This document shows positions 13,554 through 39,584 of a stretch of DNA of 64,000 nt, piece after piece. Each line of letters opens with the position of its first letter. The stretch's first letter is position 1. This stretch comes from a virus. Its lineage: Duplodnaviria > Caudoviricetes. The notes under the pieces are model-generated. The model was not told where the DNA came from and made no database searches. It saw only the letters and a list, made by a program, of their open reading frames with translations. The position numbers and the translations under genes were made by a program. The stretch is taken from IMG/VR virus record IMGVR_UViG_3300021387_000075. One strand, given 5' to 3'.

Positions 13554-13807
13554 TTAAATCATCCTTTCTCTTTCTTATATATTTATTATACCATAATTTT
13601 AGAAAATGTCAAGAATTATATTCTTCTAATTTCCAACCTTCGTCATCATCAAACCAAATAATTAGTATGACTTTATGCCCATCCTTCCATCCATGCACGT
13701 AATTACGCGCGCTATAAGCAGCGGAACAGATTTCTTCAATTTTATCCATACGGTTGGAATCAAGAACAACTTCGGATATTTTATCGTATAAATAATCTTT
13801 CATTTCA

Positions 13808-14089
13808 TTACTCATTAAATATTTTCTCCTCATCTACAAAACCATGCTCATCTTCTGGATAGGGTAAATCAAAATAGAAAAATTCAGTATGACTGCCTAC
13901 ATCAAATACAGACTGCCCATCCTCATTCCAAATACGAGTATAGTATCTCTTAAATGGCCTTTTATTCGGCCATTTGTCATTCGCAGAAGTAATAAACCTA
14001 TCAATTTCAGTCATTACTTCTGCAAAAGTATTGCACTCTGCAATTTCTCGTCTCTTACCAAATGAATTACTGAACCACAGTTTCGCCAC
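13808..14089 (-). CDS. Conserved phage hypothetical protein
   Basis: YTRIW...FDVGSHTEFF. Confidence 0.6.
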   Translation of the reverse strand: MAKLWFSNSFGKRREIAECNTFAEVMTEIDRFITSANDKWPNKRPFKRYYTRIWNEDGQSVFDVGSHTEFFYFDLPYPEDEHGFVDEEKIFNE

Positions 14090-14269
14090 TTCTATTCTCC
14101 TCTCTTACAATTCCATCATAGTCTAGCTATATTTTAGTTAAAATTTCAAATCTACATAGAGGACATGTGACATAAGAATTTCTATGTACATCCTCTGGCC
14201 TGTATCCAAGCAATGCGCCACAGTTATTACAGTGGCAAATCAATCCATTATAATAATTACTTAAAATCG

Positions 14270-15004
14270 TCATATAACTTTACAGTACCAAACAACGGTA
14301 CATTTCTCTCCGTTAATTTCTTTATGCGCCTTAACTTTCATCTTTAGCTTAATAGCCATACCAACCTCAAAATTTTTGGCGCCTGTTTCCCATATATAAG
14401 TATTGCCTTCGGCATCGCGCATAAAATGTGTATGCTTTTCACCAAAGTGGTCTTCGCGCGTGAAATTTTCTTTGACCGTGACTTCTTTTTCGAGCCACGT
14501 ATTTTCTTGCCCTTGGTAGGTACTATTACTTGTGAGAGGCTGTATGCTAATAAGGCTATTGATAAGCTTGGCAACTTCTTCATGCGGCTTCATCCTATCA
14601 TCGTGATCCATTACTTGTTCCCATTTTAATTGAATAGGTTCAATGCCAGTTAAAACTTCGGGCGTGGGAAATTTACTAGGAGTATAATAACCAAAAGTAA
14701 GATTACGCCAAATATTAGTACGGTCATTCTCCGCCCACCTCTCTACCAAATTTTTGTCACCTTTATAAATGGTGATATAGCCCTTTTCGTCAAAGCCGAA
14801 AGCGTGGCGCGCATTGAAGTCCATTACATCATTTTTCTTAGGCTCAATTCCCGCTTTGCGGTCCTGCGCTGCGCGTTCCGCTTCTGTATACCAGCGTACT
14901 TTTTTATTGCCGTTCGGCATCATAACATAAACATACATACGACCATTTTCTTTAAAAGGTTCTCCATCTAGACTATATTTATCATAAGAACGTGCGGTTG
15001 GCAT
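14270..15004 (-). CDS. Hypothetical protein, possible C-terminal OB fold
   Basis: ORF track; RBS and upstream promoter. Confidence 0.7.
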   Translation of the reverse strand: MPTARSYDKYSLDGEPFKENGRMYVYVMMPNGNKKVRWYTEAERAAQDRKAGIEPKKNDVMDFNARHAFGFDEKGYITIYKGDKNLVERWAENDRTNIWRNLTFGYYTPSKFPTPEVLTGIEPIQLKWEQVMDHDDRMKPHEEVAKLINSLISIQPLTSNSTYQGQENTWLEKEVTVKENFTREDHFGEKHTHFMRDAEGNTYIWETGAKNFEVGMAIKLKMKVKAHKEINGEKCTVVWYCKVI

Positions 15005-22910: not shown

Positions 22911-23678
22911 TTAAAACTCCTTATCTTATTCCAATTAAACTCATACCCGCATTTTGGGCATTTAGAAATTTTTTGATAAATACGTTCCATACAGCCAGGG
23001 CACCATGTCAGCAGTCTATCATTGTCATCTTTATAAGCCTTAGATTTTTTTAATCGTTTGGCATCTTCTCGTGCTTGCTGGATATCAGCGTTTACATCAA
23101 AACTCATATTTCCTCACCATACAACTGCTCGTGTAGTTTCAATTCTTGGTTCTTGTACGCCCCAATCATAGAATGTTCCGCATCGGTCACAAGCATTATA
23201 GGACTTATATCGCTGTCCAATATATTCTCCACATGTTGGGCAGAAATACTCTATGGCATACCAAGAGTGCCAGCCATCTTCATCATATTTTTTAACAATT
23301 TTTGCACTAGGTCTAATTTTAGAAATCATTTTTACTCCCTCATTTAAATTTTTGCTTTAAAGCAAAGTTCATAGTACCGTATTTATTATATTTTAAATAA
23401 TAATAAACCAAAGCAATAACTCCGAATAGCAGATTTTTCTATGGATAATATCTAGGATTTCCTTGACAAGTTACAACTACTGTCCAATTATAATTCTTAT
23501 TCATAATTTACCCTCAATAAAATTAGATGTGCTATTACGCCAAATTTCTTTTCTATTACCCACCGCACTTCATACTTATAGGGCATATAATTGTAAGCCT
23601 ATAATACATTTCGCACGAATGGAGAAAAGAAAACTCTTTAGCTGATGGCTGCTTCTAAGCCCACAGTTCTAAATTAAG

Positions 23679-23765
23679 CGACACTAGCACGACTCGAACG
23701 TGCATACCCTTTTACAGATACCCTCGTCTTAGCAGGACGGGGCGTTACCATTCCGCCATAGTGTC
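23679..23765 (-). tRNA. tRNA-Ser(GCT)
   Basis: Cloverleaf, loop CTGCTAA, long variable arm, G73. Confidence 0.88.
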
Positions 23766-24064
23766 ATTCTTCTTTATGATACTTGTATTCCTCTGGAAGA
23801 ATTACTTGAAGGAATTGTCTAAAATATTTTGCCATATCTTCAGTAGATTTGAAACCAACAATTGTTTGTGGTTCATATGCACATTTATATAACACCATAT
23901 CCATTATTCTTAAACAATTATAAACTTCTTTTAACTTATCTTCCATAATACCTCCAATAAATAAAACGCCGCGGAAGAGTTGCAGATACTACTCTGCCTC
24001 TTACAACAGGAACAATCCAACGCGGCAAATCTATTAGCGCCGAAGCGCGAATATTTAATTAAAC

Positions 24065-24160
24065 TAGGCCATTGTGATTTGAAGGACTTGAACCTTCTCA
24101 AAAATTTTATGAAAGCAAATTTTCTTTAACCTATTTTTGAAATTATGCTGTAATGGCCTA
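24065..24160 (-). ncRNA. ACAGC-bulge stem RNA containing a T-arm
   Basis: TAGGCCATT/AATGGCCTA terminal stem, ACAGCA, GAAGG-TTCAAGT-CCTTC. Confidence 0.6.
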
Positions 24161-24165
24161 TAAAC

Positions 24166-24279
24166 TAGACAGTATTAGTACGCCGCTCTACCAATTGAGC
24201 TATCTTCCTAAAGGAAAAAATGGACTCGAACCATTAACACGCGGATCCTCAGTCAAGAAAATAAGGCTGTAACTGTCTA
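24166..24279 (-). ncRNA. Circularly permuted tRNA mimic (Y RNA/YrlA-like architecture)
   Basis: Terminal stem TAGACAGT/ACTGTCTA enclosing T-arm, loop-closed acceptor stem, then D-arm. Confidence 0.75.
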
Positions 24280-24283
24280 TAAG

Positions 24284-24357
24284 TCCGAGTAGCGAGATTT
24301 GAACTCACGACTTCCTGCTCCCGAAGCAGGCGCTCTACCAAGCTGAGCTACACCCGG
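24284..24357 (-). tRNA. tRNA-Pro(CGG)
   Basis: Cloverleaf, loop TTCGGGA. Confidence 0.93.
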
Positions 24358-24949
24358 AAATGCGGCTTTCGCCGCGAACGAAAGGAGATGATTCACAAAT
24401 GTTTTGCAAGCTCAATTCTGTTGCCTCTTATATCTACTCTTATCTCTCTTTCTGTAATTATTATATCATAAATTTTCTTCATTGTCAAGCATTTGATCTT
24501 TCATTTCTTCAAGTTTGCGCCTATCGGAAATTGTATTTTCACCATGTTTAGATAGTCCTCGGCACAAAGGGCATGAGCAATAGATAGCGTTTTTTGAATA
24601 TTGATGAAGGTTATCATACCATCCTTCAGGCCAACGATAAACTTCTTCTACAATTTTACGCTTACGAATAGCTTTCTTCCAATCATTATGACGTTTCTCT
24701 GCGGTATTACGCATAGGCATCACTCCCATGGATATTTATTTATTTTTACTGGTATATCATTATACCACTTTTTACGCGCTCCGCAATTGGGACAATAGCG
24801 ATATAAAAGATTGATTTCTTGCTTCAGATTAAAGCCTTGTTTATTGCGCGAACAAGCATAATCAAAGCCACATGAGCAATGAGCGTACCATGCTATATCA
24901 CCTAAGTATTTTCTTATTTCCCAATGATGATCAATACTCCGGCCCTTCC

Positions 24950-25258
24950 TCATGGCGCCTCCATAAATATAACTGGCTTTCCGTGCTTATACGCGTAAGC
25001 AATTTCACTTTTAGTGCTTTCACCAATATATCCATTCTTATTGATTATAAAAATTTCATCAGCCATATCAATTTTACGCTTGTGGATATCATCGAGCATT
25101 ATTTTTTGTTCTTCGGTAAAAACATCCCCACTATGGCCAAAGCACCCTACGCTAAGTACAATATTACCAGCAAGAGTAAGTTCTTTATTAACACGTTCAA
25201 AATCCTCCTTGAAACGAGTACTTCCGCATAGCGTTATTACATGATAGTTACCAATCAT
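24950..25258 (-). CDS. Small deoxyribosyltransferase-like/DUF4406-like protein
   Basis: ITLCGSTRF, HKRKIDMAD, GYIGESTKSEI. Confidence 0.65.
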   Translation of the reverse strand: MIGNYHVITLCGSTRFKEDFERVNKELTLAGNIVLSVGCFGHSGDVFTEEQKIMLDDIHKRKIDMADEIFIINKNGYIGESTKSEIAYAYKHGKPVIFMEAP

Positions 25259-25561
25259 TCACCCACCGCCTTAGAAATAAAATCATGAAGATACATAAGA
25301 AAATCTTCATCTTCCACATAAAAAGGATCATTACCATGCTCGTTTTTATATGCTAAACAAGCATTCACCATTAGCTGGCTCAGGCGCCAATCAGGAACCA
25401 TTCCCCAAATTGTAGCAAGCGCATCGCAATAAGGTTTAATTCGATTTGGATTTCTCATGTATATCCTCCAATTATCAAAATAATGCGGTTTCCCGGGTAT
25501 CCTTGTAAGAGCACATTACCGCAAAGAGCTATCTTACCTTTCTTATCCCTATGCTTAAAAG

Positions 25562-25632
25562 CAGGGGAACTAGGATTCGAACCTAGACCACAAATTTTGG
25601 AGATTCGGATGCTGCCGTTACACCATTCCCCT
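25562..25632 (-). tRNA. tRNA-Trp(CCA)
   Basis: Cloverleaf, loop CTCCAAA. Confidence 0.93.
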
Positions 25633-25733
25633 ACGTGCACCATTTTCTCATAACGTTATAAACGGTGCCAAACTTGTCCGGATAGGAATGACGGTCATGA
25701 CTCCGTCTTACTGGCCCCTATCAGCCAGCATCG

Positions 25734-25806
25734 TGCGCCATCGGAGACTCGAACTCCGCACGCCAGCATTAAAAGTGCTGTGCTCTACCAGATGAGCTAA
25801 TGGCGC
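25734..25806 (-). tRNA. tRNA-Lys(TTT)
   Basis: Cloverleaf, loop CTTTTAA. Confidence 0.95.
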
Positions 25807-25810
25807 ATAT

Positions 25811-25885
25811 TGGTGCCTAGGGGTGGAATCGGACCACCGCATGGGAGATTTTCAGTCTCCAGCCTTTCCATTTGGCTACCCAGGC
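25811..25885 (-). tRNA. tRNA-Phe(GAA)
   Basis: Loop CTGAAAA; encoded CCA; variant T-loop TCCGATT. Confidence 0.9.
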
Positions 25886-26108
25886 ACGAAGAGCGGACGC
25901 ATCCGCTCAACGAAGGCTTAGGCCGAAGCCAACCGCCGCAATTCATTTTTGTATAATTCTATAAGTATATGTTGGCATATGATAGTCTTTCGACCATTTA
26001 CCTTTACCGAAGTAGAATCGAAAATAATCATTATGTTCTTCTACTCCTTCAATTTCATATTGGCTACTCATCTCAACCCAATGATTTGTTAATTCAACTA
26101 TCATTAAA

Positions 26109-26726
26109 TTACGGCCATTCTCCCAATGGGAAACCAAGTCCTGCGCGCTCTACATTCGTGTTGAAAAATACACCTGCTGTTGCGGGGCCAGTTAAAAGCT
26201 CGCTGGCAATAGTTTCATAAAGGGTGCTAATAATGCCGTGGCAATCGTTTAGATTATCCGCAGCAAACTGTACTACACAGTTATTAAATACAACATAAGT
26301 AGTACCAATCCATTGGTAGCCTTCTTCGGCTGGGCACTTGGAATATGCGTAAGCCGGATTCTTCGAGAAAGCCGTATCAAATAGCTCAACCTTACTTGTG
26401 AAAGCACGGTTACTGGGCTTACCATCAACAATTACCTTTAGTGTCACATTGCCAAACTTAATTTCTTCAGGTAGAATTTGTAGAAGAGCAGCAACCTTAT
26501 CCCCGTTGTTACAAGCTAGAACAACGCAAGGATGGGAGCCAGAAAAGTCAGTATTAAAAGCAATCTGTGGATCACCATCAAATAGAGCTTCTAGCTTTCT
26601 GATTACAATTGTCCAGGGTGGTAGAATCTTTAGTCTCGGTTCATTCATATTATAGGTACCTCCAAAATGAATTATATGCGCTTTTCGCGCAAAGTCTCCA
26701 GCCGACGATTTGAACGCCGATTTCAT
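26109..26726 (-). CDS. Hypothetical phage protein (true start probably MNEPRLK, ~26648)
   Basis: ORF track; GGAGG RBS before the internal Met. Confidence 0.7.
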   Translation of the reverse strand: MKSAFKSSAGDFARKAHIIHFGGTYNMNEPRLKILPPWTIVIRKLEALFDGDPQIAFNTDFSGSHPCVVLACNNGDKVAALLQILPEEIKFGNVTLKVIVDGKPSNRAFTSKVELFDTAFSKNPAYAYSKCPAEEGYQWIGTTYVVFNNCVVQFAADNLNDCHGIISTLYETIASELLTGPATAGVFFNTNVERAGLGFPLGEWP

Positions 26727-26766
26727 GGTCCGTAGCCATGTGTTCTCTCCCTTAGACTAGCCGGAG
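26695..26766 (-). tRNA. tRNA-Arg(ACG)
   Basis: Cloverleaf, loop CTACGGA. Confidence 0.85.
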
Positions 26767-26885
26767 ATAGTGTGCTACCTTTATGGGCCGTGGTCCGCAT
26801 GCAAAGCCTAAGCGTGTGCCCTCTCGCAGTAGTAGCACGGGATGCGTCAAATCCATCCACTGGGTTGTCAGCTGAACAACAATCG

Positions 26886-26959
26886 TACCTCCCATGAGAT
26901 TTGAACTCATACTGTATACGTTCTTAGCGTATTATCTCTGCCAGTTGGATTAGAGAGGC
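26886..26959 (-). tRNA. tRNA-Leu(AAG), short variable arm
   Basis: ATACG-CTAAGAA-CGTAT anticodon arm; A73. Confidence 0.8.
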
Positions 26960-27131
26960 ATAGATACTTTGTTAGGCTCTGCAGCGCCTATCTAACAGGC
27001 TTCAAAGTATAATTGCCTGGCCCTTTCATCATCGGTGCAAATGCTCACGCTTGTTTATTATAGTCCCTGCATTGTGAGGCCCCAAGACTTTCCATTTTGC
27101 CGATTGAATACGGTAAGCGCATGGATACGCT

Positions 27132-27217
27132 TGGTGCGCCGGGGTGGAGTCGAACCACCGATGTTTCTTCGTCGTGGATTTACAGTCCACTGTCTTCGCC
27201 ACTGGACATACCGACGC
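27132..27217 (-). tRNA. tRNA-Tyr(GTA)
   Basis: Loop CTGTAAA, long variable arm, encoded CCA. Confidence 0.93.
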
Positions 27218-27727
27218 ATAATACGCGGTCTAAGGTGCCGCAAACCCTATCCTTGAACCGCAGGAACTCAGGATAGATTAGTTCCATATAATATCAAGCA
27301 GAGCAGACATAATCTGTTTCATATATTGCTATTGTTCCTACAGCTCAATGGTTACTTGATTTTTACCAACCACTCGCATCCCACCGCCCTGTTCTACTCG
27401 GTTAGAGGTCACTGTCACGTTATTCACGAACTTCCTCATCGCCTAAGTAGTCATGCGCCAAAGCCTTGTCCGTTGGTATATTAAAATGTTTTAATTTCAA
27501 GTTCTTCTGCTTTAACATAAGGCCGTTCATCCGGGCCCTTACTGTAATCCATCCACCAATAACTATGAGATTCAATCTGTGATTTCTTCAATTCAACATA
27601 TGCTGCAATGTTATTTGTGTTTACATATTCTCTTTCTATACGCCAATTTCTACATTCACAATCAGTATACCGTTCAATAAAAACCACATAAATCTTTTTC
27701 ATAATTTTTTCCTTTCAGAATTTTTAA

Positions 27728-27802
27728 TGGAGCCTCCAGACGGATTCGAACCGCCATAAGCGCCTTACGAAGACGCCGTACTTGCCGTTGTACGATGGAG
27801 GC
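27728..27802 (-). tRNA. tRNA-Thr(CGT)
   Basis: Loop TTCGTAA, encoded CCA. Confidence 0.92.
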
Positions 27803-28017
27803 ATAGTTGAGAGGGAAAGGCGCGATGGTGTTCCGCGCTAGCCGTTTATTGTCATTTCTAAGTCCTCGTCAGGACTTAAGTCCTCGTCAGGATTTTCCTT
27901 CCCTCTTAACATAATTATTATAACAAAATTTTTATTAAAAGTCAAATATTAATTTAATAAGCATTTGAAAATGGATATACTATAAGCATAAAGAATATCA
28001 GTAATCCAATTATAAAT

Positions 28018-28416
28018 TTAAATTTCATGTTTTACCTCTTCTCTAAAAAAGTAAAGTAAGTAAGTATCTGGTTCTAAGCCAGTAAAGTCTACAACAATGC
28101 CTAAATCTTCAGTAATTTCAGCGTCATATAAATATAAGTCATTGTTAATTAGTGCAGACTTGATATGATCATCTGGATGAATTTCAACTGGAATATACCA
28201 AGTAACTTTTTCATAAGGCTTATCTACAATTACCTATACAGCTTCAATTAGTTCGTAACATTCTAAGTCGAAGTCAAATAGTGCTGGATCACATTCTTCA
28301 AACTACATTTCAGGGTCGCATGTAATTAAAGACTTGGTAGATACAGACGGCGCGGCCGCGGCGAATAAGGGAAACGTAAGTAATAAACATAATATAAGTA
28401 AAATAAGTTTTTTCAT
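28018..28416 (-). CDS. Predicted secreted protein (signal peptide), TAG-recoded
   Basis: MKKLILLILCLLLTFPLFAAAAPS...; at least 2 in-frame TAG; TAA stop. Confidence 0.7.
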
Positions 28417-28417
28417 T

Positions 28418-28834
28418 TTAACTCTCCTATGATAAATAAAATGTCACCTAAGACATTAATTTTTTACTAAAGTAAACAATTTCTAAAACATCTGTATTTG
28501 TTGTGAATATTTTAGGTAAAAACTAATAGTGCATATTTACCTATGTATAGTATTCTACATAATTTAATCCAATTTTACAGAAAAAATAAAATCTAATCCA
28601 TGCTTGTTCTGTAATATTGTATGAAGTAATACTCCATAATTTAGCGCATACTTTATCAATAAATTGAATTGCTCTTGGCATATCCTTCCTAGAATAATTA
28701 CTGTCATAAAGTAAATTACCAATTAGTATTATAGAATTAGTGGATTCTGTATTTAAGTATAACGATAAATCTTCAGTAGAAAAATTAGAGCACCTTTTAA
28801 ACGCGAATAATAAATGTAAATAAGCAGTATTCAT
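28418..28834 (-). CDS. Hypothetical protein in rSAM operon (4 TAG)
   Basis: ORF 28541..28834 extends through TAGs to TAA; ATGA overlap with the upstream gene. Confidence 0.65.
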
Positions 28835-29340
28835 GCGCGCTACGTTAAGGAATTAAGATCTGGTATAATTTCTATATTATCAAGTTGATCTAATAACTAC
28901 TGAATTTCATTTACACGTTCTGAATGATATAAAATTAAAGTTTGCGTATAATAATACTTTAATATTTTCTATAATTCTATTACTTCTATTTTTTGAACTT
29001 CAGCGCTAATAATAGAATTGAGTAAGTTAAGAGTTGTAGTATCCGATTCATTAACTGGTTGTAAGCGCTATACGATATATGCACTAATTATGTTTTGCTC
29101 TGCTTCTGTATAGTAAGAATTATATAGTGCCTAAATAATATTAGATACATATGAATAATTATCACTAAATGAAGCTGTATAGGCTGAAGAAGCACATCTT
29201 TCTATAGCCGCTAGCACGATTCCAATTGGATATTCAAATCTGCTTAAAGCAGTATCAAAAGATGTAAAATCATTAATATTAAATGGTTCCCTATTTTGAA
29301 ATAGTTTTAAAAGTTTTAATTCTATAGTTAAACTAGACAT
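28831..29340 (-). CDS. Hypothetical protein in rSAM operon (5 TAG)
   Basis: ORF 29131..29340 extends through TAGs to TGA; AGGAGG RBS. Confidence 0.7.
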
Positions 29341-29351
29341 GTTTTTCCTCC

Positions 29352-29891
29352 TTATTTATGTCCTGGTACTGAAGAAGCTTCATTACTACAGCTACCATGA
29401 GCAGTTGTACAAACATCTGCACAAGTTTTAGAACATGCTGCTCCACATGTCCCAGCACAGCCGCCCGAACAACTACTACAACTGCCTTTACATTTACCCG
29501 TACATGAGCTTTCGCAGCCACCTTTACATCCGCTTTTACACCCGCCACTACATGAATTATAGCATAAACCACGGCAGCTACTACCTGTACAGTCAGTACT
29601 AGCAGAGGTTGCCGGCGTGTCCTCATAATTTGCTAAAGCAATATTGGCAGCGGAAATATCTTTAATAGCATTTGACTAAATACCAGTAGCCTTAATTAAA
29701 TTAATAAAACCTACTGTTTCATTAAAATGAGTTAATCTGGCAAGTTCGTTTCTATTAGCTGAATTTGTAAAATTAGTAGCATAAGATGCGAGGCTATCTT
29801 TGAATTTTCTTCTTGACATTTCAGCTTTTACTCGATTTTTAAAAGCAATAATATCATTAGATAATATTGCAGATCCCTATTGTAAGCCCAT
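29352..29891 (-). CDS. Cys-rich CxxxC-repeat protein, putative radical-SAM substrate (179 aa, 2 TAG)
   Basis: C-terminus DCTGSSCRGLCYNSCSGGCKSGCKGGCESSCTGKCKGSCSSCSGGCAGTCGAACSKTCADVCTTAHGSC with 17 Cys; missing from the ORF track. Confidence 0.85.
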
Positions 29892-29902
29892 TAAAATCAC
29901 CC

Positions 29903-31165
29903 TTATTTTGCTAATTGCATTAATAATTTTAATTCATTTTCAGGAATAATCTGTAATGCAATTTCTTTATTTAATAATACGGGAATACGTTTATTAATAT
30001 TATTTTGTATATACATTTTATTCCAATAATAACTACTAATTAATACACCTGCTCGGTAAATCCAGCAGATATTAGTATTTCGTATATTGACGGCTCCTTC
30101 TGATTTATAATTCCATCCAGCGCACATGGGGCACATACCGTGAATATTACAGTTTGAACATTGATTATTTTGCATTGTTAAATTTATGTTATATTTTTTT
30201 AACCATTCAGAAGTTGGTGAGATACCATTAATATTACCTATTGAAATAGGATTATTTAATGAACTATTCATAAAACGCAAGCAAGGATACGCAATTCCAC
30301 TGGGATCAAAAGAAATGGTCTAACCAAAAGCGCCACAAGTAATATTATCTTGATGATAATCATAAATTTGATCTAAGTTTTCATAAAATAAACTAGTATA
30401 GATACTTGGATTTTTAAGTAAAGAATCAGCAATTGATTTTAATTCAAAATAATACTATGTTGCTTCCTACTATGTCCATTTATGTTCAAATATTGGTCCG
30501 CCAATTATTACCTTACAGCCTATATCGGTAAAGAATTTATAGATTTCATGTAAATATAATAAATTATCTGGAGTAACAGTAATTTTAGTATTTGGATACC
30601 CTTTAGTTTTACTCCAATAATCTTTAAACGCCGCAATTGCCATATCAAAACTACCATATCCTTTTTTATCTTTTCTACAGGCATCATGCATTATTTTTGG
30701 CCCATCAATAGTAATACTTAATTTTACAAAATCTTCAAACTCTTTAAGATATTTCTATACTTGTTTAGTAAAATATAATGTACCATTAGTAGATAAAGAA
30801 AAGCTAAAATTAGTTAGCCAGGGATGCTATTGTTTTATACACTAATCAATAAAATACCAACTTCCATAATAAATAGTGTCAATATTCATTAAGGTTTCGC
30901 CGCCGATGAACTCCAATGTAACTCCTTTGGTGTGCTAATTAATAATAGTATTTTTCTAGTTTTCTTTATACTAATTAAATAATAAATCAATACACGATTG
31001 CATTATACTTTTTGTCATAGATTCATTGCCTTTATTTGTCTAATAACAATATGAACAATTTAAATTGCATTTATTAGTGACCTAAAAAGTAATACGACGA
31101 TAATTTGCATCTGGATCATCATCTAAATACGGTAACAATGAAATATAATCTATTGGAGAATCCAT
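29903..31165 (-). CDS. Radical SAM/SPASM peptide maturase, CXXX-repeat-target type (copy 1, TAG-rich)
   Basis: ITF[Q]VTNKCNLNCSYCY[Q], FIGGE, STNG, ITIDG, YPCLRF, CSNC...CPMCAGWNY. Confidence 0.9.
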
Positions 31166-31431
31166 TATTCACACTCCACAGTTTGATTAAAAAAATTTAC
31201 TTTACATTTACGCCATTCTGTTTCTGGACAATATTTCTAATTCAAAAGCCTTTTAGCAGTATCTAGTTCAATTTTGTACATAATTGCATTACTAAAATTT
31301 TCTTGTATAAATTCATCATCTTTATTTATTCCATGTTTTAATAAATATTTAAGAATATGTAAATGAGCTTCATATATTTTTAGCAATGCTTCAATTTCAT
31401 CCGATTCATCGCGTGTAATATTAATAGTCAT
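31165..31431 (-). CDS. CXXX-repeat modification system partner protein (copy 1)
   Basis: MTINITRDESDEIEAL...; resembles 36644..36931; TAATG overlap with the rSAM gene; one TAG. Confidence 0.7.
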
Positions 31432-31527
31432 ATTATTCTCCTATTAAAAATAGCCCCATACGGGGCAAATTCAGCAGTAGGTTGCTAGCCCCACATACGT
31501 TTATACACTTATTTGGTATCGTGTAAG

Positions 31528-31611
31528 TGCCCGAGGCCGGACTTGAACCGGCACGCTCAAAAGAGCAACAGATTTTAAGTCTGTGGTGTCTGCCTATTCC
31601 ACCACTCGGGC
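31528..31611 (-). tRNA. tRNA-Leu(TAA)
   Basis: Loop CTTAAAA, long variable arm. Confidence 0.95.
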
Positions 31612-32105
31612 ATAAAATACAGGATTTGTTTGTCATGCGTCCATGAGCCAGCTTAGTATTAAGCGAAATAACTGTTCATCGCTCCTGTATTGTTAATGAC
31701 GTAAAACCCCAAACTAGTCATTATCGCGTCTAGCTAGACCGCATGTTTTCTGTCTTGAACGAGCAAGCGCGTGACAAGGATTACAATCTTATTTAGGGAA
31801 CTTCCCAGAGTCAAGAGAAACTCATCTACAGCGCGAGAGGCGTACTAAGATCTTGTCTTAGTGGGTTGCGCTTCGGTGTAGGGGGTGGACCAAAGGGCAT
31901 TTCACCCAGCCCAAACGGCAGTTTTCAGTCATGCTGGACATTCTATAATAGCAGATGCAACTAGTATTCAGCACCATTTCTCGATGCTGGCATCTCCTAA
32001 TAGAAAGCACGTACTCATTAAGCACATGCCTAGTCCGTTTTATATGATAGAATACCCCGCGGAGCAGGCTCCAAGTGGTACAACGGCTCATACTATCAAA
32101 AATAC

Positions 32106-32170
32106 TAGGCACATTAAACTAGACTTTTTAACAGAAAGTTGTTCGTATAAAAGTTTGCTGTTTGCGCCTA
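32106..32170 (-). ncRNA. ACAGC-bulge stem RNA
   Basis: TAGGCGCA-AACAGCAA...TGTGCCTA. Confidence 0.55.
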
Positions 32171-32349
32171 ATTCGCACTTTACTTCGCTTCTTTCTATAC
32201 CGTTTTCCGCTATGCCACATATCACTACTGACCTGCCCGCTTGTTCGCTCAAGCGTACTTATATGCACTGCGGCGGCAGGTTTCGTGCCAGTGGTAGTTT
32301 AAGTGCTAAATCCGTGTTAACGGTTTCCACCAACTAACGAGTGGAGATG

Positions 32350-32423
32350 TACCCAATGGGAGATTTGAACTCCGCGTCTGCACCTTGAAAGGGTGCTGTG
32401 CTAACCTACTACACCAATCGGGC
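32350..32423 (-). tRNA. tRNA-Glu(TTC)
   Basis: Loop CTTTCAA. Confidence 0.88.
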
Positions 32424-32475
32424 ATTTGGCGCTTTCGCGCCATACATACTAAGAGGTATGTTGTTATGATCAGAG

Positions 32476-32547
32476 CGACCTTACGCAGAATTGAACTGCG
32501 GTTTTAGGTGTGATAAGCCTACGTAATTACCACTATACGATAAGGCC
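32476..32547 (-). tRNA. tRNA-Asp-like with ATC anticodon
   Basis: Asp-type body (G73, C38), loop TTATCAC. Confidence 0.8.
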
Positions 32548-32718
32548 AGATGGCGTTTTCGCGCCAATAGATATGCTGCAAACAAGGTATGGAAATGGTT
32601 CAAAGGGTTAAATGTTTCTATTGCTGGCATATCAATAGGCACGTTTTATAGTGCGGTGCCCAAGCACTGACACTCTTTCACAAAATGCTACAGAAGTGAA
32701 AGGAATGTTTATGTAGCG

Positions 32719-32791
32719 CGGCTCCTGTAGGGCTCGAACCTACGACACTTCGGTTAACAGCCGAATGCTCTGCCAACTGAGCTAAGGAGCC
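32719..32791 (-). tRNA. tRNA-Asn(GTT)
   Basis: Loop CTGTTAA. Confidence 0.95.
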
Positions 32792-32870
32792 ATATGAAGT
32801 GAGTATTACGGCCCTCACTTACGGCTTCTAACACACTTATGATGGCTCAGGTGGAATACCCTAAGCCGAG

Positions 32871-32943
32871 TTGCACAGACAAGAATCGAACTTGCATTTG
32901 TTGGGTATGAGCCAACTGTCCTAAGCCTTTAGACGACCGTGCG
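32871..32943 (-). tRNA. tRNA-Met(CAT), initiator-like C1:A72 mismatch
   Basis: Loop CTCATAC; only two of the three initiator G-C pairs in the anticodon stem. Confidence 0.85.
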
Positions 32944-33159
32944 ATATAAAGAGGTCAACTTGTCGCGACCAAGCTGACCGAGGTAATCTCAGCTACAGAA
33001 ACCTTATCATAAGCGCACCTTCTGCCGAGTCACCAATACGCGGCGACCCGCTGGACTTGAACCAGTTCTCTATGCATAGGCTGTCCCTCTTCTCAGATCG
33101 ACCCTGAGATACGGCCACAACTTCTTGTAAATACGTGCCAGTTGTCAGCACAATCGCGA

Positions 33160-33230
33160 TGCCCTCAGAGGATTCGAACCTTCATTTCCGCCACTGGCGT
33201 TGTTTTCTCCAACTTAAACTATCTTTGGGC
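33160..33230 (-). other. tRNA-like element with truncated anticodon arm
   Basis: D-arm and T-arm (GGTTCGAATCC) present; anticodon arm is CGCC-AGT-GGCG. Confidence 0.55.
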
Positions 33231-33743
33231 ATATTAGATAGACTATTGCGAACTTGCGGTCTATCAGCGCGGCACCTTTTTTACGTGGGTCGTGTATCCA
33301 CGGAGGTTGCTCGTCGCAACCCGCTTCTATGAGCGGCCTCACATTTATTTATACTCGTAAGCTCTACCGAGTGTTTTGGCCTACACATCGTGACGGGGGT
33401 AGTTGATGAAGCTACTTCCTTTTCAGTTTGGGGAGCGACCCCAAGAGCTGGCCGGGACTACCAATCCTTTTCCCTGCCCTCCCGTTTTTCAGCCAAGTTA
33501 CCAATTCATCGACTGGACTACTAATGTTTATACTCGGTGTCACCGAGTTCCATACGTATGTACCGTTTGCACTGCCTACATCTCGCTGCGTTGCGTAACG
33601 GGTGAAATCTTCCGCGACCTAGCCGGCACCTTTTGATGTTCTCGGACATCAGCGTGTGGGGAGTCTAGATATACCTTCTCACTGAACCGCTCGACTAAAT
33701 ATTTTACTTGTACTAGCGAGAGACAAGTCCCTAACAGGGAAAC

Positions 33744-33799
33744 TAGGCGCGATGCAATCTTCTGTTAATAAGCATTATAAATAGTGCTGTGTGCGCCTA
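33744..33799 (-). ncRNA. ACAGC-bulge stem RNA
   Basis: TAGGCGC-ACACAGCA...GCGCCTA. Confidence 0.55.
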
Positions 33800-33803
33800 A
33801 AAG

Positions 33804-33877
33804 TAGGGTATCAGAGGCTCGAACTCTGCATCTTTGGTTTATAAGACCACTGCACTAACCTACTGTGCTAATACCCA
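33804..33877 (-). tRNA. tRNA-Ile(TAT)
   Basis: Loop CTTATAA; A73. Confidence 0.85.
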
Positions 33878-34574
33878 TCACTCCTAATCTAATTCTTTTG
33901 GAAAATACTTAGCAAGTCCATCCGTAGAATATCCTACTGCACGTAAGAACATTACAAAGCTATCACAAACATCCTGAAGATGGACTCCATCAGCCTTAGA
34001 AGTACTAATTTCTACATCGGTATCAGCCATTTCCTTATTTTCATCCTCAAAAGTATACCAGAATCTAATTGTTTCCATCTCTTACTCCTTTATTATAACT
34101 CAATTTTGTTCTTTTGTCAAATAATCACTTTCCCAATCTTCAAGTGACCATTCTTCATCTTCAAGTTCTTCCCAAGAGAAATTCATAATGAAATCATCTA
34201 ACATTCTCATCTCTCCCTTCCTTATGTATATATTATAACAAAATTTTGAAAAAAAGTCAAATAAAAAATCCCGTAATTTTAATAAGTCTATTTGCGATAG
34301 CTCCTAAATTACGGGAGGTGCGCCCGCAGGTTCGCAACTCCTCGGGTGCGGACGAAGTGTCGTGTCGTCATACGTCCCATTAACTCGCAGAGAAATAGAG
34401 TGTACTGTTGACGGTGTACAAGTATCCGGCATTATATTCTTATATCGTTGGCCTACTGCCGGCTCGCAATCTGTCATCCTAGGCTGACTTATACGGGGTA
34501 ATGGCTCCCGGGTAGCATACGTGCTTGCCTGCGTCCTTACTTTTATCGCGATTAGGGAAGTAAGAGAACCTAAG

Positions 34575-34645
34575 AGCACCATGCGAGACTTGAACTCGCC
34601 GCATCTGCTTGGAAGGCAGACATATTACCGCTATACGAATGGTGC
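34575..34645 (-). tRNA. tRNA-Gly(TCC)
   Basis: Loop CTTCCAA; U73. Confidence 0.93.
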
Positions 34646-34651
34646 AAATAC

Positions 34652-34714
34652 TCGGCACACTGATAATTTCCTGTTATCTAAAATGGTGGAAAATATATTT
34701 GCTGTATGTGTCGA
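34652..34714 (-). ncRNA. ACAGC-bulge stem RNA
   Basis: TCGACACA-TACAGCAA...TGTGCCGA. Confidence 0.55.
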
Positions 34715-34799
34715 TAATTTTATTCCCTAAAGGAATAAAACTGGCTGGATGTTAGGCCATCCTTATCTCGTTTCAGTAGCTAACCGTCCGCTTCCCACG

Positions 34800-34887
34800 C
34801 TGCCCCTCTGGGACTCGAACCCAGATTACCCCTTCAGAGGGTATAACGGTTTTAGAGACCGGCGGTTTACCATTAGCCTAAGGGGCA
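34800..34887 (-). tRNA. Amber suppressor tRNA (anticodon CTA), probably Gln
   Basis: TGCCCCT/AGGGGCA acceptor (U1-A72, G73), loop CTCTAAA, long variable arm. Confidence 0.92.
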
Positions 34888-34926: not shown

Positions 34927-35265
34927 TCACCAATTAAAAGCATATTTGAATACATCAAATAGAGAAGGAACTTCATCGGCATCTGTCACAGTATAATGAT
35001 AGGTGCCATATTTCTTACAGAAAGCTTCCAGTTCGTTTCTATAAGCTTTCTGCGCTTCTAGATAAGCCTTGCGCGCGGTTTCGACTTTATCAGCCATTAC
35101 CTTGCGCTCGGCCGCGAGAGCTTCTTTCTTTTCCTTTTCTTCTCTCAATGCCTTTTCTTTTTGAATCCTTGCGAGATTCTCCTGTTCTTTAACCTTGAAT
35201 TCAGCCTCCATACACTCTCGCTCTGTGTCGAAAACCTTGTTCAATTTTTCAGAATAGTACTTCAT
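34927..35265 (-). CDS. Coiled-coil hypothetical protein
   Basis: ORF track; GGGAGG RBS; promoter at 35337-35365. Confidence 0.75.
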   Translation of the reverse strand: MKYYSEKLNKVFDTERECMEAEFKVKEQENLARIQKEKALREEKEKKEALAAERKVMADKVETARKAYLEAQKAYRNELEAFCKKYGTYHYTVTDADEVPSLFDVFKYAFNW

Positions 35266-35361
35266 ACTTACTACCTCCCTATGTAGTAAAATTTTTTATT
35301 ACAAAGTAAGTTCCTTTCCTTACTCTGTATACATATATTATAGCAGAATTTTTAGAAAATG

Positions 35362-36651
35362 TCAAATACTTAATTGTAATAATTCATCATATTCTTCATC
35401 TGAAATAATTTGAGTGGCGATATTTCGCGGTAGATAAACTGGCATTCGTTTCTCACGATTATGCGCCCGATAATAGGTATTCCAATAATAGGTATTCGCA
35501 AGCATATTGGCGCGATGCATCCAACATATATTAGTACTGCGTTTATTGTAAGAGCCAGTTTCCTAGTAGTTCCACGCGCTACACCATGCACACCCTGCGG
35601 CGATAGGGCAATCTATACATTCTTGCGTAGATTGAGATTGTCGCGTAACCTTTTGCATATCATCATATATAGCTTTAGTTTCAGGAGTGTTATAAATACC
35701 ATCAGCATTTCCAATAATTATTGGCTCACGATCTGTGCCAAGGGAACTCGGCATATAACGTAAGCACGGATAAGCTTTTCCTTCTGGATCAAATGCTAAC
35801 ATAGCAGATGTGCCACCGCACCAATTCCAAGTATCAGTCGATAATAGAGGACGGCCACGATTCTCAGCAAATAATGAACTTTCTGCGCCTTCAGTTTGTA
35901 AAAGTCGTTCGGCTAAGCGAATTAGAATACAATAATATAATTGTGCTTCTTCAATTGTCCATTTATGCTCGAATACAGGATTGGCATGAATTGTTTTACA
36001 ACCTTTACTAAGAAAAAAATCAAATATGTCTTCCATTAACTCTAAGTTTTCGGGCGAAATAGTTACCTTAGTATCCAAAGGATTGGTTCCAATTGTATGA
36101 TACCAGTGTTCCCACGCAGCCATAGCTTTATCAAAACTACCATTACCATCATAATCTACACGGCATAAGTCATGTACTTTCTTAGGGCCATCAATAGTAA
36201 CATTCATGCTTAATAAATTTTTATACTTCTAAATAAAATGCTATACTTGCGGCTAAAAATAAAGAACACCATTAGTACTAATTGAAATACGAAAGTTTGT
36301 AAGCCAAATATGATCTTTCTCTAAGCATTGTTCAATAAAGTAATCGACAATATAATCCATTACTTCAACATTCATAAAAGGTTCGCCGCCAATGAAATCT
36401 AGAATAACACCGTATGTATGATGATTTATAACAGAGTTTTCTTTATTTTCATCATAAAGTTTAAATAATAAATCAACAATTCGTTTACCGGTTTCCTTAG
36501 ACATCATAGCATGACCTTTATGGCCCTGATAACAGTAAGAACATTTAAGACAGCAGTCATCGGTTACTTGAAAAGTAATATTGCGACATATAGCCTTGGG
36601 ATCTTCTTCTATATATCTATGAATTACTTCATCAGAATAATCTTTACTCAT
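35362..36651 (-). CDS. Radical SAM/SPASM peptide maturase, CXXX-repeat-target type (copy 2, 4 TAG)
   Basis: ITFQVTDDCCLKCSYCYQ, FIGGEPF, WCGG, YPCLRY, CIDCPIAAGCAWCSAWNY[Q]; ORFs join across TAGs; TGA stop. Confidence 0.92.
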
Positions 36652-36931
36652 CTTTTATAAAAACTACTTGTTTCTTTTCAAAATCAAATTCATAACGATC
36701 CCAATCACCCGCTGGCTTATATTTCTTTTCAATATCAGTTTTTGCTTTATCTAGCTTAATCCATAAATCTACTGCCTCGTTCCACTTACGATCATAAATT
36801 TCAGTATTTGAACTTACATTATTATCGGATAGGAATTGTAGCATACTTAAATAAGCATTATGGCTCATAAACAGACGCTCGATGTTTGCGCTTTCTTCAC
36901 TAGTAATAGAAATTTCTTTTCTCATGATCAT
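36644..36931 (-). CDS. CXXX-repeat modification system partner protein (copy 2)
   Basis: ISITSEESANIERLF...YEFDF; overlaps the rSAM start. Confidence 0.7.
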   Translation of the reverse strand: MIMRKEISITSEESANIERLFMSHNAYLSMLQFLSDNNVSSNTEIYDRKWNEAVDLWIKLDKAKTDIEKKYKPAGDWDRYEFDFEKKQVVFIKDE

Positions 36932-36986: not shown

Positions 36987-37015
36987 ATTATATCAGATTT
37001 TTATATAAAAGTCAA
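36987..37015 (-). promoter_or_regulatory. Sigma-A promoter for the rSAM copy 2 operon
   Basis: TTGACT-N17-TATAAT. Confidence 0.7.
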
Positions 37016-37419
37016 ATATTTATCTTAGTCCATCCAGCTGGATAAACGGAAGGACTCCAAATATTATTATCAATAGCACTTTCATATACTTCGCCTTCAA
37101 ACATAACACGATCACCGCGCATGTAAGGATTGGTACTATCTGGCTGCTCCCATTCAGGTACTACATTTGGATCTGGAATTAAGACTTTTGCCCATAGACT
37201 TGGCGCGGCAACAGGAGTCCAAGCTTCCTGTGCGGCATGTGACTATAAACATTTATATAGGATGCCTTCATACTATACTTTATCGTCAGTTAAATATGCT
37301 GCGTTGGGCCGCCAGTTAGGAAATAACTGGACGGCTTCGAGCGCATCTTCTTCAGAAAGGGACATGGCGGCTTTTTCTATATATGGGCGAAGTTTTCGCG
37401 CGAGTTCTATTAAGGTCAT
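37012..37419 (-). CDS. CBM5/12-like carbohydrate-binding phage tail accessory protein
   Basis: LYKCL[Q]SHAAQEAWTPVAAPSLW, WEQPDSTNPYMRGDRV, NIWSPSVYPAGW. Confidence 0.8.
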
Positions 37420-37673: not shown

Positions 37674-39584
37674 TCAGCCTCCATAATGTGATTGCCATTT
37701 AGTAATATTATTAGTATAGATAGAATTTTTAGTAGGAATAAACATGATACGAGCATTAGTGCGGTTTAAGGCAGCAGCGATATTTATGTCACAGCTATAA
37801 TCAAATAGTCCAGCACTTTCCGCAGATGTATTACTTCCGCCAATTAATACTACATCTGTATTATTTAAAGAAGAATTAGTCCAGCTACTATCACCAACCG
37901 GCACAGCACTATTTGCTTTATTATTACATTTAATTGGCATATAAATATAATCATATTCATCGGCGCCAATACCCATATTAGAAATCCAGCTGTAAGACAT
38001 ATTTGGTAGAGAGAAACCTATTGAGTCTGTATCTTTATAATATGGTATACCGCCATAGGACTGTCCGTTACCTTTAATGCTAATTTTATCTACTACGCGC
38101 CATAAATCTCCCCATGGGTTCTCCATACCACGATAATTGATTGCAGTGGTGTCTTCTTGTGTTTTTTGAGTTGTAGTATTTCCAGTGATAAAAGTAGTGG
38201 TATCGGCTCGACCGCTATCATTGCCCAAACTAGATGTAGATCCAGTAATCATTATTTCACGGTCTTGAGTATTAACAACTCCCTTTCCTAAACTATATTG
38301 ACCATTTAAAGATCCAAATTCAATCATAAATAACATTTGTAAGGCTGACTCAGAATTAATATCTGTTAATTGCCACCCTTCACCACGATTGGCTGCGAGT
38401 TGTCTTAAATTATTTATAGTTAAATTTTTCCCTGCACAAATTAATGGTTGAGTATTAGCTATAGAGCTTAATTTATCATTGCTAATGTCGATATTAGTAC
38501 TATTATTTAACGCATAAGTAGATTCACTTGTATCATAAATGTTACCTTCATAAACAGGCAATAATACATAATCTAATTCTTCATCATTATTAATAAATAA
38601 AGGATGGAGCTTAAACCCAACTTTTGCCTTGGAAGAAAGCAGCAACTATTCTTTACTAATAACACGACCTTGAGGATCAGCAATTTCAGTAATAATTGTT
38701 CTCTAATAATAGAACTTGGGCTGATAAATCATTACTTGTCCATTAGAGCCATCCTCTGTATAATTTTCGTCTCCATAGAAAGCATTAATAGTACCGTCAT
38801 CTGCTACATTACAGCGCATGCGGCCACCATACATAGGATATTTATTAAAGTTAGAGCCAGCAACTAGATTGGCGGCACCATAGACACGTTCAAAATTTTT
38901 ATTATCATAGTCAATCAGTAAGCCGATACTTTCTTTATTTACAGTTCCACTGCCACCGCCATTAAGAATTGCCTCAGCAATTTCTTCCTCTGTTAGAGTA
39001 CCAGATGTGATATTGCCATTCTCATCTACTATAACTATCTTTCCTGCGGCGTCAATGCCAAGATTACTTACACCAGAACCGCTGCCGCCAGCTACTTTAG
39101 AATCTACATATGCTTTTGTAGCTACATCAGCGGCATTAGCTTTTAAATCTAATGCGGCGGTAATTGCCTTCTAAGTCATGGTCCCGTCTTCATTATTACC
39201 AGGTTGACGATACATCTTATCAATCTCAGATATTGTAGTAGCTAATCCAGATGGATTTGAAACTACCATATCTGTAACAATGGTTGAAGCATTAGTACGT
39301 TTGCTTAAAGAATAAGCAAGCTTATCCATTTCATTATGGATTTGAGTAGTATTGACTTCTTGTAATGATTCGAGAGCAGAGTTGACTTCAGTTAAAGTGG
39401 ATTGTGCATCTTGTAATACTTGCTATGCAGCTGCATTATTTTCATTTGTCTATTCTGTAATGCTTTCAATATTAGCAAGTGCTTCATTCGCGCGAGCAAC
39501 CGCCTGCTGAGACTAGGCCGCATAAGATTCAATCTACCCTTGTGGAGTTAGCGCTCGTGCTAGCATAACATCAACTATATCCAT
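37674..39584 (-). CDS. Tail-associated structural protein (TAG-recoded)
   Basis: Start 39584 is in frame with ORF 37674..38645; GFKLHPLF, MIEFG, YRGMENPWGD motifs seen in phage tail proteins. Confidence 0.7.

Follow-up and report, generated by a model that had tools for sequence, protein, structure and literature searches.

Why should a tailed phage carry radical S-adenosylmethionine (SAM) enzymes beside a protein that ends in a ladder of cysteines? The question is raised by the minus strand of IMG/VR virus record IMGVR_UViG_3300021387_000075, of which a stretch of 64,000 nucleotides (the window) was analysed, and in particular by positions 28018-31431. The explanation that we favour, and to which we give about an even chance of being right, is that two maturases of the TIGR04115 type, each with a small docking partner, would post-translationally modify one 179-aa protein, and that this late-expressed module yields a stapled Cys-ladder protein associated with the tail. 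The window itself is that of a gut phage. Its tail and structural genes lie at 37.6-57 kb, and it also has 17 tRNAs, PhoH, an RNA ligase and a Ro-like protein.

When TAG is read as glutamine (Gln), calling of open reading frames (ORFs) finds six consecutive minus-strand ORFs that span 28018-31431 (the A operon). The first encodes a small partner protein of 88 aa (partner A, 31165-31431, one TAG), whose translation is coupled to that of the next gene. It is followed by a radical-SAM/SPASM enzyme of 420 aa (maturase A, 29903-31165, 12 in-frame TAGs), a Cys-rich target (29900/29891-29352, two TAGs; 182 aa from a GTG or 179 aa from an ATG), two accessory ORFs of 169 aa (28831-29340, five TAGs) and 138 aa (28418-28834, four TAGs) and, as the operon's last gene, a 132-aa ORF with a signal-peptide-like N-terminus (28018-28416, two TAGs). 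The junctions, in operon order, are a 1-nt overlap, two 11-nt gaps, a 4-nt overlap and a 1-nt gap. Since the ATG at 29891 is preceded by an AAGGG ribosome-binding site and agrees with the starts of homologues, it is the likelier start of the target. Under the standard code (translation table 11) the same stretch gives fragments only, none longer than 125 aa. An earlier sequence-only reading had described a tightly coupled operon that appears with TAG as Gln, and had held that a TAG in every gene makes standard annotation shred it; the short overlaps and gaps, the 1-12 TAGs per gene and the pieces left by table 11 agree with both statements.

The decoding of TAG was assessed by aligning, at codon level, 75 unique maturases that come from 86 loci, the viral set used throughout (80 IMG/VR loci that were kept, five related loci, L001-L005, and the window). 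In this alignment 110 in-frame TAGs occupy 45 columns, in which 43% of the sense-coded residues are Gln against a background of 2.7%, a 15.6-fold enrichment, and near-invariant Gln columns hold 3 to 14 TAGs apiece. Judged by this alignment, TAG is decoded as Gln. The suppressor tRNA found by ARAGORN (anticodon CTA, 34799-34887, minus strand) has a long, stem-forming variable arm in the style of class II tRNAs (Ser, Leu, Tyr), which is odd for Gln charging; Ser, Leu or Tyr, as suggested by this long arm, were ruled out as the meaning of TAG by the codon alignment. The share of Gln codons written as TAG is 33-100% in the A operon, 24-60% in structural genes and 0-6% in early genes. Because the share in the A operon is similar to that of the structural genes, its timing is probably similar too. 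A look-up of sequencing runs listed no RNA data set with the operon; small shares turned up in ruminant gut runs, and the one full match is probably the source sample. As TAG is present in all genes of the A operon and in a second maturase gene described below, the module would be translatable only while the suppressor tRNA of the phage is at work, and would be made together with the structural genes.

Maturase A is assigned by its sequence to the radical-SAM/SPASM superfamily, both sets of motifs being present. The CxxxCxxC motif is formed by C33, C37 and C40, and the SPASM pattern that was tested (C-x9-15-G-x4-C ... C-x2-C-x5-C-x2-3-C ... C) by C277, G290, C295, C336, C339, C345, C348 and C367; all these residues are invariant in 20 homologues, and the spacing CX2CX5CX2C is one residue under the textbook x3. 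The top NCBIfam match is TIGR04115, the CXXX-repeat target maturase, at 241.3 bits and end to end (positions 3-359 of 359). The score lies below the cut-off of 350, and the next family, PapB, reaches 155; we read maturase A as a diverged member. The enzyme is without an N-terminal recognition domain, as the family model begins at about residue 24. A second pair of partner and maturase is located at 35362-36931 (minus strand), outside the stretch considered by the earlier reading and with no Cys-repeat gene adjacent. Its maturase (maturase B, 429 aa, radical-SAM/SPASM, 35362-36651, four TAGs, the first at codon 133) passes the TIGR04115 cut-off with 351.2 bits over model positions 2-359 of 359. 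Maturases A and B are 44% identical, and maturase B is the orthologue of the second maturase in the relative L003. The sulfatase maturase family TIGR03942 gives 65.5 bits with A and 56.8 bits with B (cut-off 349), and the PapB family NF047865 gives 155.1 and 148.7 bits (cut-off 340), so neither cut-off is reached. The earlier proposal of an enzyme of the CXXX-repeat maturase kind is borne out by these profile comparisons, and the grouping with sulfatase maturases that it had named as evidence to the contrary did not appear. In a large protein database maturase A has 1109 homologues at E<=1e-10. A collection of cultured phages yielded no close homologue, the best hit being an unannotated faecal contig at 31.7% identity, and the radical-SAM genes of jumbo phages in that collection are about 21% identical to the maturase.

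The target consists of two parts. An N-terminal folded helical domain of about 100 residues (29592-29891, minus strand) was delimited by AlphaFold2 (AF2) modelling and profile search, and a Cys-ladder tail with the C-terminal end and Gly/Ser/Thr-rich spacers (29352-29591, minus strand) by the Cys positions and TIGR04117. The 17 Cys described by the earlier reading are found at residues 104-171 (182-aa numbering), with gaps of 4, 3, 3, 3, 3, 3, 3, 3, 3, 2, 3, 3, 3, 3, 3 and 6 residues, so that 13 of the 16 are CxxxC. TIGR04117 matches the target with 26.8 bits (E 4e-6; cut-off 50), and 7 of 23 target relatives match this model and 4 of 23 match TIGR04114. A junction motif, C-x4-C-x-G-L-C-x3-C-x3-C, is invariant in 23 target homologues. 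The AF2 model has block means of about 80-94 in pLDDT (predicted value of the local distance difference test) over residues 11-100, with three main helices, and less than 50 in the Cys tail, which makes the first 100-110 or so residues a confident helical domain in prediction.

The same layout recurs in the family as a whole: an N-domain of about 100-130 residues, the junction motif and a Cys ladder of very variable length. Among 120 unique members the number of Cys ranges from 11 to 95, 72% of the gaps are 3 residues long and 24% are 2 residues long, and the spacers are composed of 31% Gly, 26% Ser and 14% Thr. Word-based searches with the N-domain returned only 2 and 3 proteins, and an exhaustive profile search was needed; it returned 677 cluster representatives, in which the domain is nearly always N-terminal in Cys-repeat proteins of 160-520 aa. 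A few members of the family add a globular domain ahead of the N-domain or behind the ladder. In P0176 the N-domain and ladder are followed by a C-terminal globular domain of about 170 aa, and in P0188 an N-terminal domain of about 175 aa precedes them; neither extra domain matched anything in PHROG or among PDB sequences. The protein at L065:5966-6652, which adjoins a partner-maturase pair and was missed by the N-domain profile, has the reverse order, with the ladder N-terminal and a non-Cys region after it. A 229-kb IMG/VR contig (L043) carries, beside two ordinary targets, a third Cys-rich protein (13659-14753) with 81 Cys in 364 aa, whose Asp/Asn/Tyr-rich spacers and CC doublets give the ladder a different flavour. 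As a lead only, the ESM Atlas clusters of a member read with code 11 (P0128) are labelled 'Modification target Cys-rich repeat' with a score of 0.90; PF27846 is found on 24-40% of their members, and 82-89% of the members are viral.

The pairing of enzyme and target is the part of the explanation that the comparison of loci bears on most directly. A relative was found in 230 contigs of IMG/VR and, when one genome per prokaryotic species was scanned, in 213 genomes, nearly all of Clostridia and other Bacillota. The automatic call of the genetic code mislabelled many GC-rich bacterial loci as recoded, which affects the ends of ORFs and not the profile hits. By iterated profile search, each of the 86 viral loci has a partner directly upstream of its maturase. 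The target family is represented on the same strand, no more than about 2 kb away, in 74 of these 86 and in 67 of 80 genome loci. With p for partner, R for maturase and C for target, the gene orders are pRC, CpR or C-x-pR. The target is very probably the substrate of the maturase, a judgement drawn from this gene association; the Cys-rich ORF, whose lack of conservation would have counted against the earlier reading, is kept beside maturases.

The further ORFs of the A operon are distributed differently. The 169-aa ORF has relatives in 10 other loci, always directly after the target gene, and the 138-aa ORF has them in 7 other loci; the 132-aa ORF has a homologue in none of the 165 fetched loci. 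The 169-aa and 132-aa ORFs have no match in Pfam, NCBIfam or PHROG. An hhalign comparison of the 138-aa ORF with the 169-aa family (probability 44%, E 2e-4, full length) suggests that the former is possibly a distant paralogue of the latter. ORFs of about 170-185 aa beside the target were considered as one family, and as a fourth core part, and this was rejected, as hhalign linked only two prophage families. Because accessory ORFs are rare while partner, target and maturase recur, the conserved core is, in gene content, a set of three genes. The earlier inclusion of the two ORFs and the secreted protein as parts of the system was thus too wide; they are clade-specific or unique to this phage.

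Recoding is likewise a property of certain lineages. In TAG-recoded phage contigs of 54-184 kb the order is partner, maturase, target, a 171-aa ORF and a 158-aa ORF, and in one lineage the second partner-maturase pair follows directly. About 62 of the 85 other viral loci use the standard code, so that the description of the module as hidden by recoding holds for the present lineage and not elsewhere. Two contigs from the genome collection stand out. L086, a 9.4-kb contig from a metagenome-assembled genome (MAG) of a rumen Erysipelotrichaceae, contains the closest relative of that collection (44% identity), in the order partner, maturase, target and 169-aa ORF; it was automatically labelled as TAG-recoded and probably belongs to a phage, having been binned together with what may be its host. 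L120, a 7.6-kb contig of a Methanobrevibacter MAG, has a maturase and partner on one strand and a 59-Cys target on the other, and its archaeal bin could mean an archaeal virus or a binning error.

A docking role for the partner is suggested by modelling. Partner B (95 aa, 36644-36931, minus strand, no TAG) overlaps the start of maturase B and matches TIGR04116 (CXXX_rpt_assoc) end to end (2-89 of 90) at E 1.5e-3 and 18.7 bits, with a cut-off of 50. Partner A has no NCBIfam match of its own, and TIGR04116 matches 4 of 22 partner relatives. In the iterated profile search partner A clusters with the partners directly upstream of maturases, and the partners are tied by position and profile to loci whose maturases, where tested, pass TIGR04115. 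The AF2 model of partner A (mean pLDDT 90.8) consists of a strand, two long helices and then two strands. A discrete RiPP (ribosomally synthesised and post-translationally modified peptide) recognition element of the PqqD-like type, considered as an identity for the partner, would be a winged helix in which a three-stranded sheet is followed by three helices. A Foldseek search of the PDB with the model returned generic helical hairpins only (E >=0.47). A complex was modelled for the homologous, standard-code trio of L022 and scored 0.83, against 0.17 for the best control; among solved complexes 58 of 80 came up to that mark, as did 2 of 110 mismatched pairs. Contact agreement between runs is at least 58%, the pLDDT of the partner is at least 83, and the score falls to 0.01 with the maturase replaced. 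The confident partner contacts are at maturase residues 1-17 and 113-153, and the model supports the partner being a docking subunit of the maturase.

If the target is the substrate, the next question is whether the product is a peptide or a protein. In a classical RiPP, the N-terminal region of about 100 residues would be a leader that is cleaved, and lysis would set free the cross-linked Cys core as a peptide with an antimicrobial or signalling role. Among SPASM enzymes the maturase falls in the branch of peptide maturases, the layout of leader and then core suits the target, and long helical leaders occur in precursors of the Nif11 and NHLP types. The neighbourhood argues in the other direction: among the conserved neighbours at the 165 loci there is no protease, transporter or exporter, or immunity gene, so that the trio does not look like a RiPP cluster in the strict sense. 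Cores with as many as 95 Cys, in proteins that reach about 520 aa, the extra globular domains of some members, the reversed order in L065 and a slot between tail-fibre and lysis genes that is constant across unrelated phages do not fit a released peptide either, and this alternative is unlikely. Since no protease or exporter is conserved, the N-domain is folded and domain fusions occur, a modified protein is preferred over an excised peptide, and we propose that the product remains a protein. Of the crosslinked, RiPP-like peptide or protein in the sequence-only reading, the modified protein has gained ground and the peptide has lost it.

The genes around the module give an indication of where this protein may go. 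In viral loci the flanks are a tail fibre, a virion structural protein and a phrog_5302 tail protein on one side and holin/endolysin on the other. The same family, phrog_5302, contains the 636-aa tail protein of the window (37674-39584), three genes upstream of partner B. Of five isolates checked, four (Anaerolentibacter, Desnuesiella, Anaerobacterium and Desulfocucumis) have as flanks a baseplate wedge protein (phrog_6), a tail fibre (phrog_7037), a minor tail protein and an endolysin (phrog_435). The maturases of Anaerolentibacter, Desnuesiella and Anaerobacterium, as well as those of two viral loci, score 385-521 bits with TIGR04115. Judging by this context, the "bacterial" CXXX-repeat system of the databases is largely phage and prophage cargo in a slot between tail fibres and lysis genes.

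This slot and the variable length of the repeat favour a tail-associated part, and the product would be a component of the tail or fibre of the virion, with the N-domain as an anchor or recognition domain and the ladder of variable length as the exposed part. We place the probability of a virion or tail location just short of even. Among the virion, antimicrobial and anti-defence roles listed by the earlier reading, the phage and prophage context favours the first. A late function inside the cell and apart from the particle, for instance in anti-defence, in the timing of lysis or in taking over the host, would suit the holin/endolysin that adjoins the module in several phages, as well as the secreted protein with which the operon of the window finishes. 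That 132-aa protein is found in the present phage only, and a repeat of variable length with domain fusions resembles fibre-type proteins, which makes an intracellular role very improbable.

As to the chemistry, we propose a run of intramolecular thioether links (sactionine or ranthionine) along the Cys ladder, by which a floppy Gly/Ser/Thr/Cys tract would become a covalently stapled, protease-resistant rod; the diverged maturases A and B may work on different parts of the ladder or form different links. Thioether links are suggested by analogy with PapB, SCIFF maturases, QhpD and CrpC, and on this footing they are rather probable. With the maturases of the window the thioether-forming relatives score 155 (PapB), 97 (QhpD) and 78-110 bits (SCIFF maturase). 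QhpD is a SPASM enzyme that forms Cys thioethers in a protein subunit kept within a larger assembly, in which it resembles the phage system. Its family, TIGR03906, scores 77-119 bits with the window and tested relatives. The QhpD/QhpC system, which matures quinohemoprotein amine dehydrogenase, differs in that the modified protein is a subunit of an enzyme, is not viral and carries three links, to Asp or Glu, in place of a repeat ladder. PapB/PapA (freyrasin), CteB/SCIFF and NxxcA are alike in that a radical-SAM/SPASM enzyme acts on repeated Cys motifs. PapB forms six Cys-to-Asp thioethers in freyrasin, a substrate of the SCIFF type (PMC8326336), and the PapB family is the second-best match of the window and tested relatives at 149-198 bits, far under its cut-off of 340. 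Unlike PapB, the phage module has no conserved Asp/Glu acceptor, and it has a separate partner protein and a folded domain of 100 residues. From ranthipeptide and sactipeptide systems it differs in the lack of a conserved protease or exporter.

The same enzyme and substrate could also undergo another reaction, such as formation of formylglycine or dehydroalanine, C-C links or methylation. The repertoire of SPASM enzymes is wide, the spacers have no conserved acceptor residue, and two maturases that have diverged to 44% identity could carry out two different steps. The best-scoring characterised relatives are those given above, which form thioethers, against 57-65 bits for sulfatase maturase, and a different chemistry is for that reason considered improbable.

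A substrate of protein size is known from Methanococcus voltae, where the Cys-rich CrpA (28.8 kDa) receives ranthionine links from CrpC (PMC13692751). This pair shares with the phage module a SPASM enzyme, a protein-sized Cys-repeat substrate and an N-terminal part that aids engagement (PMC13692751). Unlike CrpC, maturase A scores only 58.7 bits on TIGR04463 (cut-off 525), and the CrpA repeat is a 17-residue unit with C-x-x-Q/D in an archaeal, chromosomal system with no phage link. CrpA has been proposed as a metal binder (PMC13692751), and metal ions are typically bound by arrays of CxxC and CxxxC, so that the ladder might bind metal or Fe-S clusters in the manner of metallothionein while the radical-SAM enzymes have a task other than stapling it. 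Such binding would not need the strict co-occurrence with a dedicated enzyme of the peptide-maturase type and a partner, and has no obvious use for a phage beside its tail genes; we regard it as very unlikely.

The closest known counterpart is the CXXX-repeat system of NCBIfam/TIGRFAMs (TIGR04115, TIGR04116, TIGR04114, TIGR04117 and TIGR04118). It has the same three components with the same coupling, and the likeness extends to maturase B, which passes its cut-off, to partner B, which matches end to end, and to targets, some of which match TIGR04117 or TIGR04114 on their Cys repeats. The models TIGR04114-TIGR04118 are all in silico, and PF27846 is an ESM Atlas cluster label. They name bacterial and archaeal proteins, while the module described here appears among the tail genes of phages or prophages, as their cargo. 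The phage system further differs in its two-domain target and, in the copy of the window, in its dependence on TAG and its two maturase-partner pairs. A full-text search of the literature found no papers on the three families of the system and no phage example, in agreement with the earlier statement that no characterised phage example is known.

Several observations weigh against a stapled, tail-associated protein. The curated NCBIfam cut-offs are reached neither by maturase A nor by the target or either partner. No characterised member of TIGR04115 was found, and the thioether chemistry is extrapolated from PapB, SCIFF and QhpD at 97-155 bits; in the spacers of the 120 family members no side chain is conserved that could act as acceptor in the way of the Asp of PapB substrates. 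The modelled N-domain matches no known fibre or anchor fold: the best Foldseek hit in the PDB had E 4.4, the top Z in a wide VIA-align search was 5.3 with generic helical proteins, and BFVD returned uncharacterised homologues only. The complex was built on homologues (the L022 maturase is 41% identical) in place of the proteins of the window, and it has no confident contact between partner and target. In the window the A operon is about 4 kb, with tRNAs and small ORFs, from the tail genes and pair B. This separation is a rearrangement relative to L003. Finally, adjacency to tail genes is suggestive and is no proof of incorporation into the virion, as lysis genes and morons use the same region.

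The region between the two parts of the module has some features of its own. A 17-tRNA array (23678-34887) with odd anticodons (Asp ATC, Ile TAT, Arg ACG, Leu AAG) cuts the maturase module in two. A terminator-like hairpin (31453-31466, minus strand) between tRNA-Leu and the start of partner A, at the upstream edge of the operon, and a promoter-like site with an extended -10 (36987-37015, minus strand; 11/12 consensus) just upstream of partner B come from a consensus scan only, and the latter is no evidence of function. Perfect 12/12 sigma-70 consensus promoters at 35337-35365 and 34092-34120 (minus strand) lie amid late, TAG-rich genes; the former precedes a TAG-free 112-aa coiled-coil ORF (34927-35265) and the latter a 66-aa ORF (33878-34078). 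Between the tail protein and partner B, a 135-aa ORF (37012-37419, minus strand), the L001 counterpart of which has a CBM_5_12 (chitin-binding-type) Pfam match, may be a carbohydrate-binding fibre accessory.

In its widest form the proposal is that tailed phages of anaerobic gut bacteria covalently staple a Cys ladder of their tail or fibre by dedicated radical-SAM enzymes, and that the CXXX-repeat system serves to build virions and is here gated by recoding; in this generality it is tentative, and we hold it with somewhat less than even confidence. If it is true, the radical-SAM thioether chemistry of small antimicrobial peptides also builds virus particles; this would add a new class of virion maturation and supply a biology for a database family that had none. 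With 230 IMG/VR contigs, 213 species genomes and 677 target clusters, the module is common, and its carriers are phages of strictly anaerobic gut Clostridia, where radical-SAM enzymes can work. The recoded copy illustrates that standard gene calling overlooks such systems in TAG-recoded phages. The case lends itself to direct testing, as the prophage form is present in several cultured isolates, among them Anaerolentibacter hominis CSJ-1, Desnuesiella massiliensis mt10, Anaerobacterium chartisolvens DSM 27016, Gemmiger formicilis DFI.6.10 and Neglectibacter timonensis SN17. A stapled Cys ladder of variable length could affect host recognition, resistance to gut proteases and phage stability, and it is a possible useful scaffold for protein engineering.

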